In this document: in pieces, positions 11,010-16,507 of the stretch
Position numbering within the stretch: the first letter of the stretch is position 1
Layout: each line of letters opens with the position of its first letter
Origin: Dictyostelium discoideum
Taxonomy: Eukaryota
Direction: 5' to 3'
Assembly (NCBI GenBank): GCA_000004695.1
Contig: CM000155.2
Coordinates: 96,001 to 160,000 of the forward strand
DNA: 64,000 nucleotides
Translations under genes and position numbers: made by a program
Notes under the pieces: generated by a model
Database searches by the model: none
What the model saw: only the letters and a program-made list of their open reading frames with translations
What the model was told of the DNA's origin: nothing

Positions 11010-14000
11010 TCAATAGAAAGTAGTTGTTGGTTGTATTTCTTCATTTATAAAAGGAAGTTCACTTCCATCAAGTTCAGCATGATCAAGTTCACTTTCATCG
11101 GGTTTACTTTTTTTGAGTTTACTTTGACCAGTTTTAGATTTAGAAAACTTTGCAAAATGACTGTCTATCAAGATTTGCACCATGCCATTACTTATTTCAG
11201 GTTGATATTCTTTATTTAATTTTCTTTTATTTCCATATAAATTACCATTTTCAAAACGGTCAAGTAATTCCAATTCTTTATTATTGCCATTATTATTATT
11301 ATTATTATTATTATTATTATTATTATTATTATTATTATTATTATTATTATTATTATTATTATTATTATTATTATCATCATTATTGATAGTATTATTAATT
11401 TTTTGATTTATTCTTTTTTTAATTTTTTCAACTATTTCATTACCAATTAAAACATCAATTTTGGAGTTTTCCTTTAATTCTTTTAAAATTTTACTATCTA
11501 ATAGATTATTCTAAATTTATAATAAATAAATAAAAAAAAAAAAAAAGAAAAGTATTAATAATTATTCTATTATTATTATTAATATATGATGTAGATATGA
11601 ATTATAATTACTTTTTCTAAAAGTTCTGCAAAGTTTTGGGATTGAATCTTTAATTTGGTAAAGCTTTCTATGACAGGGTTTTGTTTTAAATTTGAATTTT
11701 CAAACATTTTAAAATTGATAATGATGGATTTTTCAAATAGTTGATTTAAAGCATTCAAATGATTATTTAATTTTATTGCAAACTTTCCTAAACATTTTGA
11801 AAAGAAACTAATCAAAAAAAAAAAAAAAAAAATAATAAAAATAAAAATAAAAAAAAATAAAAATAAAAATAAAAATTATTACTAATTTAGTATTTCTTTT
11901 TTTTTTTTTTTTTTTTTTTAAATTATAATTTATAAGTAATACTTACTATTCTATTTCTTTTTCAGTGAAATTATTATAATTAATAATAGATTTTACTAAA
12001 GTGATAGTACATTCAAGTAATCCAAATAAGAAATCTGATTGATTGGAATTTTTAATATTACTATTGATATTATTTTTATCATTACTACTAAAAATATCAA
12101 TGAATTGAATTTCTGATATTAAACATAAATTACACTTTAAAAGCATTTTACCAATCTATATATATATATATATATAAAAATAGAAAAATAGAAATATTAA
12201 TATTATTATTATTTTGATTATTATTATTATTATAATTATTATTTATTATAATAAAATACAAACATTATTTGAATCATCAGAATTTATAAATTTATATTTT
12301 TCATGTTCAAAGTAATTAATAATTGATTTTTTTGAACAATATTTTGAAATGACAGATGATAATGAGTTTACAAATTCTTGAATGATAGTTAATAAACCAA
12401 ATGGATTATCATTTTTAAAATAAATGGTTTCGATTAAATCAAAGAATATATTATTATTTAATAAATTTAATGGACCATCACTATTTATAATTCTTTTATT
12501 ACAATCCATTAAGAAATCATTTGATTTAAATAAGATTTTACCATTACCATTAGCACCACCACCACCATTACCACCACTACTACCAATTGGTAAAAGGATA
12601 GTTGATATTAAATTTTGATTATTTGAAGTATAGGTTGTCTCTAATAAGCTATAATATAAAGAAGGTTCATCTAAATTAATTAATATATTCTCTCTATTAC
12701 AATAATCTGCCAATGATTTTATAATATCAACAATAAAATAGGATATGAATTTATCATCAGCACATTTAAATATTTTAATTAATGAATCTAAAACAAATTG
12801 ATATTTATCTGATTTATTTGATGATGATGATGATGATGATGATGATGATGATGATGATGATGATGATGATGATGATGATGATGATGATGATGATGATGAT
12901 GATGATGATGATGATGATGATGATGATGATGATGATGTTGTTGCTGTTGTTGCTTTTGTGTTTGAATTATCATTTTTATTAAAAATTAATAAAAAGTCAT
13001 CAAATAAATATTTATATGCATTTTTATTTGACTTTAATGACAAGTATTGAAAGATTCTAATTAATTGTAAACAATAAGATACAATTATTTGAGATTCAGA
13101 AAAAGAATCTATACTTAATTTACCATTTGAATATTTTCTTTTATTTCCATTCAATGTTCTAATTGAATCAATAAATGTGAATTTAATTAACCAACTTATA
13201 AAATTATCTTGTAAACAAATCTTTAATGGTAACACTATTGATAAACTTGAATATAGACTTAAGATTTCATTTGATTTCTCTTTACTAATTTTAATTTGAT
13301 TAAGAAATAATTCATTTAAATTATTTTTATTTGAATTACTATCATTAATTAATAATAGTAAAGAATTATGATTAATTAAAGTTTTAATTAAAAATAATAA
13401 TAATTCTTTTGAAGAAGTTAATTTATTTGAATCTAATGATGTTGAAATAATTGATGTTGTTAATGTTTCAATTGATAATGTTGATAATGCTTCATCAATT
13501 GATGGACTTTGAAAATCATAAGGATTATAATTTATTTCATATTCATTTTCTTCTTCTTCTTCTTCTTCTTCTTCTTCTTCTTCTTCTTCTTCTTCTTCTT
13601 CTTCTTCTTCTTCTTCTTCTTCTTCTTCTTCTTCTTCATCATTCTCATCATCTTCATCTTTTTCTTCTTTATCTTGTTCATCTTGTTCATCAATATTTGA
13701 ATAATTCGAACTACTTATAAAATGATATTCTAACTTTTCATTCAATTTATTGGCCAATAAATAAATATAAAATAAATTTGCTAATAAATTATCAATATTG
13801 GTATTATTATTTGAAATTATTGATAAAAGTTTAATTTCCCAATAAATATTATGAATTTCTTTTTCTAATAAAATTAATTCTTTTTTTGCTTTTTTTTTAT
13901 TGTTGATATTGATATTATTATTATTATTATTATTATTTTTCATATTAATTAAATATGGTTTTAATACATTTAAATCATTTAATGTATTTAAAATATGATT

Positions 14001-16507
14001 AGGTATTAATTCATTTAAAATATTTTTATCTAATCTACCAATATATAGTAAAAAACATTTTAATACTCTTGATAAATATTCCCAAACATCTTGTTTTTGT
14101 AATATATCTGAATTAAACATTTTTATATTTTTATTTTCCAAAGCATTATCATCATCATCATTATTATCATTACCATTATTAAATATTTCAAATGATTTAA
14201 TTAATGGTAATAAATAAAATGAAATTATAAATTCAATGTTAACTTTATTAAATAAATCTAAACTTGAAATTAAGAGATCCACTAAATAATAATTAATTGT
14301 TAAATCGTGTTTTTTTTTATTTGTATAACCCATAAAATCTACATAATCAAGCACTTCTTTTATAAAAGAAGTATCAATGTGATCATAAAAATGTGATAAA
14401 ACAATTGAGATATGAATTAGTTTTCTTTTATTCATTATTTTATCCTCTAGAGTTTTTATTTCATTTTCATTTTCATTTTCATTTTCATTTTCATTTTCAT
14501 TTTCATTTTCATTTTCATTTTCATTTTCATTTTCATTTTCATTTTCATTTTCACTCTCATTTTTATTTTCATTTTCATTTTCACTTTCACTCTCATTTTC
14601 ATTTTCATTTTCATTTTCATTTTCATTTTCACTTTCATTTTCATTTTCACTCTCATTTTCATTTTCATTTTCACTCTCATTTTCATTTTCATTTTCATTT
14701 TCATTTTCATTTTCATTTTCATTTTTTTTTTTGTCTTTTATTAATGATAATAATTTAAAACATCTTTTTAATATCACATCTATTACTGATTTTGTTTCAG
14801 TTTCTTTATTTATTTTTGCGTTTGATACTAGTTTTGGTTTTAAAATATCTGAAATCGCATGAATTTCATATGGATGATAAGAAGTTGATTGTATTAATAA
14901 AATATTTAAAAATCCTATAAATATTTCACCATTTTTACCATAGTCGCTACAATTTTTACCATTATAAGTAATTGGTAAACTAAAAGGATTATTAAATATT
15001 TATAGTTAAATCCCTTAATATTCCAAGTGATACCTTTGAAACTAATTGTATCTCTTTATTATTAGTATAACTATCATACATCTCATCCTCTTCCTCATAA
15101 TCATCTTTATTTACTAAATGTTGTAATAATATATTAATTAAAGTTTTTGGTGATGATTTAAATAAAGAAATTGACATTGAAGTTAACCATTTTTGAATTG
15201 TTGTAATTGTTTCTGAAGTTATTGGATTTTTTGGTGATGGTGATTTTTTATCTTTAGTTTCAGTTGTAGTATTATCATCACCATCTTGTTGTTGTTGTTG
15301 TTGTTGTTGTTGTTGTTGTTGTTGTTGTTGTTGTTGTTGTTGTTGTTGTTGTTGTTGTTGTTGTTGTTGCTGTGGTTGCTGTGGTTGTTGTTGTGGTTGT
15401 TGTTGTTGTTGATTTGTATGAGAAGTGAAATTGGTTGAAAAAGTTGTGGTAATAGATTCATTAAAGTTTTTAATCTTTTTAAAGAATTCAACAATTATAA
15501 AAGATAATGTTGATATTGATATTGAGTTATCAAGTCCATTTGATAATGATTCAAATGATAATAAATCTTTTGTAACTAATTTAATCAATAGGTCAATTGA
15601 AAAACTCTTAAAATCTATACCTTCTAATTTACTATTAATTTGATGTTGTTTCTCTATTAAATAATCAATTAATTTAAATATAAATTCAAAATGGTATCCC
15701 TTTATATTTTGTTTTTTATTTATTATTATTAAAATATAATTTAATACTTTATATATATATATATATATATATATATATATATTTGAAAATTAAATTAGTA
15801 ATTTATTATTATTATTATTTTTTATACTATTACATACATTTAGGGTTGAATTGAATTGAATTTTCAATTAGAATATCAATTAATCGATGAAGATGAATAT
15901 TATTATTATTTAATAATAAAATTTTATCAATTAATGATGCTATAGTTGTTAAACCTTGATTAGTACTTTCTTTTGATGTCTTTATAAATAATTTATAAAG
16001 ATCCAAGTCATTATAACTATTATCTTCATTTGTTGTTGTACTTGTTGTTGTACTTGTTGTATTTGGAGTTGATAATGATTCATGAACTAATTGATTAACA
16101 AAATTAGATTCTTCTTTAGGAATGAAAATTGATTTAAATGATAATGCTACATGATGAATAAGTTTTAGATCATTCATAAGTAATTTCTTTAATTCTGATA
16201 CAACCATTGAAAATTCTTGTGTGGTTGGATTAATTCCAACATAGTCCCAAATATATTTAATTATTATTCTTGGATTATTATAATGTTTTAAAAATTTAAT
16301 TATTAAATCAATGCTTTCATTAGATTGAATAGTTTTACTACTCCAGTACTTTAAAATTGAATCAACATATTCATCATTTAAATTTTCATTATTATTATTT
16401 TTATTATTTTTATTTTTATTTTTATTATTTTCAATTATTCTATCTAATAATTTATTTAATTGTTCTATATTATTATTTTTATTATCTTTAGTTTTATAAA
16501 GATCCAT
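11010..16507 (-). CDS. Large low-complexity protein (1652 aa), six exons, helical ARM/HEAT-like segments between extreme homopolymer tracts. Exons on the minus strand: 16507..15838, 15746..15080, 14979..12264, 12155..11947, 11807..11612, 11510..11010.
   Basis: Six minus-strand ORFs join with consistent phases: donor GTATGT after ...FNPK (phase 1) to an AAAG acceptor; GTATGA after ...EEEDE (phase 2) to a CCTTTTAG acceptor; GTTTGT to TATAG; GTAAGT after ...EKEIE (phase 2) to GATTAG; GTAATT to AAATTTAG. Total 4959 nt = 1653 codons. Tracts: (CAA)n poly-Q ~40, (GAAAAT)n giving (EN)~42, (GAA)n poly-E ~37, (TCA)n poly-S ~42, (AAT)n poly-N ~37. No family assignment from motifs. Confidence 0.7.
12812..12945. 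repeat. (GAT)n ~45 units on plus = (ATC/TCA)n on minus. Encodes poly-Ser in the gene frame; the same DNA gives poly-His/poly-Met in the other frames.
   Basis: gatgatgat... run. The track ORFs 12782..12982 (+, poly-M) and 12788..12973 (-, poly-H) are alternate frames of the coding repeat. Confidence 0.95.
14455..14712. repeat. Hexanucleotide repeat (CATTTT)n on plus = (GAAAAT)n on minus, ~43 units with occasional CACTCT/CACTTT variants. Encodes an (Glu-Asn)n tract with ES variants in the large minus-strand gene.
   Basis: Direct reading of 14461-14710. It also creates artefactual plus-strand (FH)n and minus-strand (KM)n ORFs in the track. Confidence 0.95.

Follow-up and report, generated by a model that had tools for sequence, protein, structure and literature searches.

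A repeat-rich orphan gene of Dictyostelium with lineage-specific coding microsatellites and a probable frameshift in the AX4 reference sequence

The gene considered here lies at positions 11010 to 16507, on the minus strand, of a 64,000-nucleotide stretch of Dictyostelium discoideum chromosome 6 (contig CM000155.2, positions 96,001 to 160,000; hereafter the window). It encodes an orphan protein, predicted to consist of helical repeats, that carries lineage-specific microsatellite expansions of a kind already known. An earlier reading of the letters of the window by themselves (the sequence-only reading) had joined fragmentary open reading frames (ORFs) into one gene of six exons. Comparison with the corresponding loci of seven other assemblies upholds the single gene and makes it very probably a gene of five exons and four introns, with a product of about 1685 amino acids in the NC4 laboratory lineage. 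The difference resides in positions 15079-14980, the proposed second intron, which on comparison of genomes is conserved coding sequence and not an intron. The window alone carries one extra T there, which is most probably an error of the AX4 reference. The five long tracts that drew attention to the gene differ strongly in length, and often in presence, among strains and species, and the protein blocks between them are well conserved.

Gene structure

The syntenic loci of the seven assemblies were found through the RRP4-like neighbour of the gene and its 90%-identity cluster. Together with their labels they are as follows.

L001: labelled D. discoideum; three differences from the window in the 5.5-kb gene
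L004 and L006: labelled D. discoideum (wild strains); about 95% nucleotide identity to the window
L003 and L005: labelled "D. cf. discoideum"; 90-92% nucleotide identity to the window
L002 and L007: labelled D. citrinum; about 77% nucleotide identity to the window

The Illumina and Nanopore sequencing project behind these assemblies covered the laboratory strain AX2-214, two wild strains of D. discoideum, strains of the citrinum clade and two possible cryptic species (PMC12745789). All five tracts have the same length in L001 as in the window, and the remaining differences between the two over 21 kb are nearly all differences of homopolymer length in intergenic DNA. Because the tract lengths are identical, the sequences are nearly identical over 21 kb and AX2-214 belongs to that project, L001 is taken to be the AX2-214 assembly, of the NC4 laboratory lineage that AX2 shares with AX4; this identification comes from the sequence and not from the record.

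The six pieces of the sequence-only reading do join, with GT..AG borders throughout and no internal stop, into 4959 nucleotides encoding 1652 amino acids, and four of the five introns are conserved in the eight genomes. The 1652-residue, six-exon product itself does not survive, its second intron being coding sequence whose removal is an arithmetic fix of the frame. With the four remaining introns, full ORFs are obtained in all seven other assemblies (1685, 1618, 1591, 1533, 1519, 1592 and 1535 amino acids), and four of these lengths (1685, 1618, 1592 and 1535) are those of independently called gene products. Applied to the window, the same model runs into a stop at codon 474. The four introns keep GT..AG in 8/8 genomes, have a G+C content (GC) of 0.06-0.09, vary in length and are required for the frame; exon GC is 0.18-0.22, and exon identity between D. 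discoideum and D. citrinum is 76-86%. Three of the intron positions (the first, third and fourth of the sequence-only reading) are recognisable in D. purpureum, and retention of the intron at 11511..11611 leads to a stop (ORF 11579-11815). Like the variability of the tracts, the conservation of the blocks and the absence of known domains, the gene structure comes directly from these comparisons. Its parts, all on the minus strand and in the direction of transcription, are listed below.

15838..16507: exon 1; ATG at 16507-16505; residues 1-223, the predicted N-terminal helical domain
15747..15837: intron 1; 91 nt, GC 0.07; the donor after FNP(K/S) matches D. purpureum
12264..15746: exon 2; one coding exon, interrupted only in the window by the extra T at 14998; it combines the second exon, second intron and third exon of the sequence-only reading
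14980..15079: stretch within exon 2 formerly taken as an intron; by comparison coding, reads MYDSYTNNKEIQLVTKVSLGILRDLTIKFNNPFS
14998: extra T (gene strand), in the window only; shifts the frame and leads to the stop at 14994-14996
12156..12263: intron (third of the sequence-only reading); 108 nt, GC 0.06; position kept in D. purpureum genomic DNA
11947..12155: exon; 209 nt; 86-98% identity across assemblies, with few gapped columns at most
11808..11946: intron (fourth of the sequence-only reading); 139 nt, GC 0.06; position kept in D. purpureum
11612..11807: exon; 196 nt
11511..11611: intron (fifth of the sequence-only reading); 101 nt, GC 0.09; the D. purpureum model is contiguous there
11010..11510: last exon; stop codon, poly-N and conserved C-terminal tail

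Over 1365 shared codons the ratio of nonsynonymous to synonymous substitution (Ka/Ks, Nei-Gojobori) is 0.40-0.63, with Ks from 0.07 to 0.42, a range that indicates a real gene evolving under moderate constraint, as judged from the aligned codons.

The existing gene calls for the orthologues disagree with one another. The L004 orthologue (L004:4569-9739) is split into products of 170 and 1387 amino acids, and those at L003:4591-9713 and L005:4727-9721 are called 22-41 amino acids too short relative to the four-intron model, which gives single full ORFs for L003, L004 and L005 (1591, 1519 and 1533 amino acids among them).

The proposed second intron

The evidence that positions 15079-14980 are coding comes from composition, conservation and frame. 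The GC of the stretch is 0.22, which is exon-like and far from the extreme AT-richness of a Dictyostelium intron. Its length is fixed and it is open in frame in 7/7 other assemblies. In its 3' 84 nucleotides D. discoideum and D. citrinum agree at 90% of positions, above the value for every exon, and D. citrinum has neither a GT donor nor an AG acceptor at the edges. The D. purpureum equivalent sits within one unbroken tblastn high-scoring segment pair. The T at 14998 is missing from all seven assemblies; once it is removed from the window, the remaining 99 nucleotides are open in frame and the product has 1685 amino acids, the same length as the L001 gene call. The rejection of this intron therefore leaves a gene of five exons, not six. 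The sequence-only reading had held that a frameshift would overturn its model, and the 1-nt insertion at 14998 is such a frameshift, though it lies outside the repeats.

That the stretch might nevertheless be a genuine 100-nt intron in AX4, perhaps a recent intronization that rescues the 1-nt insertion and yields the 1652-residue product, is very unlikely. The edges in the window read GTATGA...TTTTAG, so that the GT..AG rule is obeyed, excision restores the frame without a stop, and 100 nucleotides is a usual length for a Dictyostelium intron. However, 19 GT..AG pairs spaced by 40-400 nucleotides bridge the stop at 14994 in frame, and because so many exist, one such pair is no evidence of splicing and a match of this kind is expected by chance. 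The four real introns are also far poorer in G and C than this stretch, which is kept as coding in seven assemblies and D. purpureum, lacks both splice sites in D. citrinum and is free of the insertion in the nearly identical laboratory-lineage assembly L001.

Private base states in the AX4 reference

In the 5.5-kb gene the window and L001 differ at only three positions, 15039, 14998 and 14866, all inside 175 bp, and at each of them the window stands alone against 7/7 other assemblies. Besides the extra T at 14998 there are two substitutions, given here on the minus strand.

15039, minus strand: TCA (Ser) in the window; ACA (Thr) in 7/7 other assemblies
14866, minus strand: Glu in the window; Val in 7/7 assemblies and in D. 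purpureum (HPY[V]IHAISD)

The three private changes crowd into 175 bp, whereas the remaining 5.3 kb of the gene has none, a distribution that suggests a patch of poor reference sequence. The extra T is much more readily explained as a base-calling error of the AX4 reference than as a real mutation of AX4.

Two further private differences were observed in the window. At 7651, in the coding sequence (CDS) of xpo1/CRM1 on the minus strand, the window has G and 7/7 other assemblies have T; the change puts His in place of a conserved Gln (ELPN[H/Q]SWLQIMG) and is either an error or a strain mutation. At 23882-24021, in intergenic low-complexity DNA, there are 13 substitutions relative to L001, mostly to A, and the cluster resembles a further patch of low-quality sequence, in either the window or the L001 assembly.

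If the three private changes at 14866-15039 were instead real mutations of the AX3/AX4 line, the gene would be truncated at codon 474 or a pseudogene in AX4 and intact in AX2 and wild strains. This account is improbable, yet it has some evidence behind it. The window and L001 were assembled independently and disagree here, the private His-for-Gln state in xpo1 at 7651 shows that other private AX4 states occur nearby, and the D. discoideum protein of this locus is missing from the protein collections, which a pseudogene annotation would fit. Against it, three changes in 175 bp and none in 5.3 kb have the look of poor sequence, a second cluster of differences lies in intergenic DNA at 23882-24021, and AX2 and AX4 descend recently from NC4, with five hypermutable tracts of equal length in the two assemblies. 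The more specific possibility that the 1-nt insertion is real and leaves the reference strain in widest use with a truncated (474-codon) or cryptically spliced allele, beside intact AX2 and wild alleles of 1519-1685 amino acids, has about one chance in eight by our estimate. Were the insertion real, it would be an overlooked genetic difference between laboratory strains, and were the cryptic GT..AG pair also used, the locus would be a live case of intronization of coding sequence.

Repeat tracts in the window

All five tracts named by the sequence-only reading exist and were located in the window, on the minus strand.

15286-15411, minus strand: Q-rich tract; 42 residues, 39 Q and 3 P; longest pure run 29; CAA x28 perfect
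14463-14726, minus strand: (GAAAAT)n array; 44 dipeptide units, 36 EN, 6 ES and 2 KN; longest perfect run 15 units
13548-13637, minus strand: poly-E; 30 residues, pure GAA
12819-12935, minus strand: poly-S; 39 residues, pure TCA
11289-11372, minus strand: poly-N; 28 residues, pure AAT

The Q-rich tract, the EN array and poly-S had been put at about 40, 42 and 42 and measure 42, 44 units and 39; poly-E and poly-N had each been put at about 37 and are 7-9 residues shorter. The 64 kb contain nine perfect triplet arrays with 15 or more units, and four of them belong to this 5.5-kb gene, which is thus tract-rich even locally. That its tract load is exceptional by Dictyostelium standards is plausible, as a case in the upper tail, on a comparison that covers the 64-kb window.

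Repeat tracts across strains and species

The comparison of tract lengths between strains, which the sequence-only reading had put forward as a check, reveals strong variation. The Q-rich tract has 42 residues in the AX lineage and about 9 in both wild D. discoideum strains, and it is absent from the other assemblies and from D. purpureum. At the poly-E site, E30 in the AX lineage compares with E8 in wild D. discoideum and with E7-E12 or (EEK)n across the other assemblies. Poly-N is N28 in the AX lineage, 7-9 in wild D. discoideum and N2-N9 over the other assemblies. The poly-S site has S39 in the AX lineage, 5-9 residues in wild D. discoideum, short T/S runs in other strains of the discoideum clade and a poly-N of 53-62 in D. 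citrinum (L002 and L007), so different homopolymers appear to have expanded independently at one homologous site. The EN array behaves differently, since L004 and L006 have an array of similar length made of EI, ED and EN units with other interruptions; a short (EEK)n stands there in L005, and nothing in L003, D. citrinum or D. purpureum. The statement that this array is not a brand-new pure expansion is borne out by these two wild strains. D. purpureum lacks all five tracts.

Judged from the aligned sequences, the extreme tract lengths are specific to the NC4/AX laboratory lineage, the EN array with its similar length in two wild strains excepted; the gene was chosen for its long tracts in this genome, and the shorter tracts elsewhere are partly an effect of that ascertainment. 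The protein alignment shows about 11 variable linker sites between well-conserved blocks, and other lineages have linker expansions of their own, such as N15 and T19 in L006, N30 in L005 and N33 beside the formerly proposed intron in one D. citrinum strain.

These features are those of coding microsatellites: the arrays are in frame, strains differ in array length, and related species keep the flanks but not the tracts. D. discoideum has thousands of perfect triplet arrays with 20 or more units, 18% of its genes have at least two repeats, and coding repeats are as variable as matched non-coding repeats (PMC3460934); 5% of coding repeats are positionally conserved in D. purpureum, and repeats are enriched in weakly constrained genes (PMC3188802). 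The behaviour of the tracts here is this already known phenomenon (PMC3460934, PMC3188802). The gene resembles described coding triplet-repeat loci such as dimA, yakA and atg1 (PMC3460934, PMC3188802) in its pure single-codon arrays within an ORF (28-39 units here), in having several repeats with strong length variation between strains, in the loss of the tracts in D. purpureum and in a weakly constrained host gene (Ka/Ks ~0.5). It differs from them in its unusually high load, since one CDS holds both a 44-unit (EN) hexanucleotide array and four triplet arrays of at least 28 units, and in the four homopolymer amino acids involved, the less common E and S included.

In the proposed mechanism, the tracts would be pure single-codon (CAA, GAA, TCA, AAT) or hexanucleotide (GAAAAT) microsatellites that grew by replication slippage, a process suggested to be recent because the arrays are pure in codon usage. 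The expansions would fall in the linkers that separate the conserved helical blocks, at roughly 11 sites that tolerate insertions, and would act there as near-neutral, disordered spacers, each lineage having expanded these shared sites in its own way. Both slippage and neutrality are inferred from this pattern.

Selection on the tracts as functional modules, for instance as Q/N-rich or acidic regions that serve condensates or set linker length, is a distinctly unlikely alternative to neutral slippage. It could draw on the acidic run at the poly-E site, present in 8/8 discoideum and citrinum sequences as E7-E30 or EEK repeats, and on the repeated expansion of the same 11 or so sites in different lineages. 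But in sister strains and species poly-Q, poly-N and the EN array are missing or very small, the residue at the poly-S site is S, T or N depending on the lineage, and D. purpureum has none of the five. The single-codon purity of the arrays indicates recent slippage, and the published surveys point the same way, with coding repeats varying like matched non-coding ones (PMC3460934) and only 5% of repeats keeping their position in D. purpureum (PMC3188802). Near-neutral slippage is accordingly preferred here.

Homologues and family assignment

A full HMMER scan of residues 619-1351 against 1.84 billion representative proteins returned one true homologue, the uncharacterised D. purpureum protein DICPUDRAFT_155809 (P0008), with E 3.8e-32 and 38% identity; the other 39 matches were dismissed as poly-E or poly-S artefacts. 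A word-indexed protein search with the de-repeated protein and with a clean 498-residue construct found no homologue, the same search with P0008 as the query found only P0008 itself, and profiles of the orthologues had 0 matches at E<=10 among PDB sequences. The protein thus appears, from these searches, to be detectable only in group-4 Dictyostelium, that is, in the discoideum complex, D. citrinum and D. purpureum.

In DICPUDRAFT_155809 the conserved helical blocks are collinear with those of the D. discoideum protein, and the two genes have in common the positions of introns 1, 3 and 4 (in the numbering of the sequence-only reading) and the C-terminal tail motif. The D. purpureum gene differs in having no tract of the five and in not being syntenic, its neighbours being flavokinase and NMT, not RRP4 and xpo1. 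Its 1229-residue model (L008:4508-8847, GL871203.1) omits coding pieces that are found in its genomic DNA, namely the equivalents of the D. discoideum sequence YHFEFIFKLIDYL... and of the 209-nt exon MLLKCNLCLISEIQF...; the true D. purpureum protein is probably about 100 amino acids longer than annotated. The C-terminal tail (window 11013-11060) is conserved, reading ELPFINEEIQPTTTFY in D. discoideum, PAFLEEDIEPSTQFY in D. citrinum and IPPFLEKAPTPTTTLH in D. purpureum, and its extreme end may be a short linear interaction motif. A conserved KRK(L) near the C-terminus hints faintly at a nuclear scaffold role.

The product of the gene in D. discoideum and D. citrinum was not found in the protein collections by exact look-up (1652 and 1685 amino acids), by word-indexed search or by the HMMER scan. 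The collections do contain the neighbouring gene's products from the same assemblies. The missing product may reflect pseudogene status in AX4 or a low-complexity filter.

A scan of the orthologues against Pfam gave no domain match in any of them. On the AX4 sequence itself two matches could suggest that the protein is a divergent Spt20 (a SAGA subunit) or an exportin-like karyopherin. Spt20_SEP (PF12090) matches residues ~240-500 with 44-46 bits (E 8e-12), above its cut-off of 27.1, and Xpo1 gives a weak match, E 6.5e-4 to 2e-3, under its cut-off. The Spt20 score, however, comes from the low-complexity segment DGDDNTTTETKDKKSPS...DDYEEEDE (window 15080-15290, residues ~378-447) and is gone once this is removed. 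The D. purpureum protein has no match to either family at E<=1, and the trimmed sequences of D. discoideum, cf. discoideum and D. citrinum have none at E<=5. Membership of either family is extremely improbable. The Spt20_SEP match was set aside as an above-threshold false positive caused by composition, being lost on trimming and absent in the orthologues, and Xpo1 (PF08389) was dismissed with a best score of 20.2 bits against a cut-off of 22.7, over a stretch of 50 residues, and no IBN_N match. FRP, DUF6535 and DDDD were dismissed as well, being under threshold and not common to the orthologues.

Predicted fold

The fast-evolving protein is predicted, from structural models of mostly low confidence, to be an all-alpha scaffold of the HEAT/ARM-like solenoid type. 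For exon 1 (223 residues), one of the five AlphaFold2 (AF2) models reaches a predicted local distance difference test score (pLDDT) of 68 and a predicted template modelling score of 0.65, the others having pLDDT 40-45, and this N-terminal model looks like a generic HEAT/ARM solenoid; a Foldseek search with it against the PDB gave no match below E 0.4. For residues 619-1351 (733 residues), the AF2 input was a two-row alignment of the window fragment and P0008, and the model is all-helical by DSSP, with a pLDDT of 34.7, too poor for a fold search. A solenoid fold of the whole protein is suggested by extension from these models. The ARM/HEAT-like segments noticed in the sequence-only reading are thus reasonable at the level of the fold, and no specific family goes with them: the Pfam HEAT and ARM repeat profiles gave no match at E<=5 in three trimmed sequences from the discoideum clade and D. 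citrinum or in P0008. The likeness to known HEAT/ARM scaffolds (INTS4, HEATR1/UTP10, AP-3 delta and the importin-beta family) lies in the predicted all-alpha helix-turn-helix stacking, for which model confidence is moderate over 223 residues and poor for the remainder. The protein differs from them in showing no Pfam repeat signal, and its identity to them is 7-13%, with none standing out.

Genomic context

The source strain of the window is D. discoideum AX4, as the ORF at 16763-17902 on the plus strand matches DDB_G0291310 (RRP4-like) exactly; the GC of the 64 kb is 23%. The repeat-rich gene lies between DDB_G0291310, its divergent neighbour, and exportin-1 (CRM1). The 255 bp between the start codons of the two divergent genes (16508-16762) are nearly pure A/T homopolymer runs and probably contain a shared bidirectional promoter region. 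The adjacency to RRP4 and xpo1 is kept in the discoideum and citrinum clades and not in D. purpureum, and for this reason no functional inference is drawn from the neighbourhood. A literature search on the neighbouring DDB_G02913xx identifiers found no papers.

Discussion

Several points weigh against the account given here of a constrained five-exon gene with near-neutral tracts and a reference error. The splice junctions are predicted from genome comparison, and the D. discoideum protein is missing from the collections. The preference for a reference error over a real AX4 mutation comes from comparing assemblies, and the identity of L001 as AX2-214 is itself deduced. The neutrality of the tracts is argued from their pattern and from the literature. 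A Ka/Ks of about 0.5 is rather weak constraint, and the structural models are of low confidence, with no Foldseek match below E 0.4.

With these points in view, the comparison provides a corrected five-exon model for an uncharacterised gene of group-4 Dictyostelium. It also flags a probable cluster of base-level errors in the AX4 reference at 14866-15039, with private states at 7651 and 23882-24021 as well. The case carries a caution for gene models built from sequence only, in that an in-frame GT..AG "intron" can mask a frameshift in a reference assembly, which comparative data reveal at once. For the biology of the organism its scientific weight is small: it illustrates a well-documented trait of Dictyostelium, the hypervariable and apparently near-neutral homopolymer tracts that occupy tolerant linkers of its proteins.

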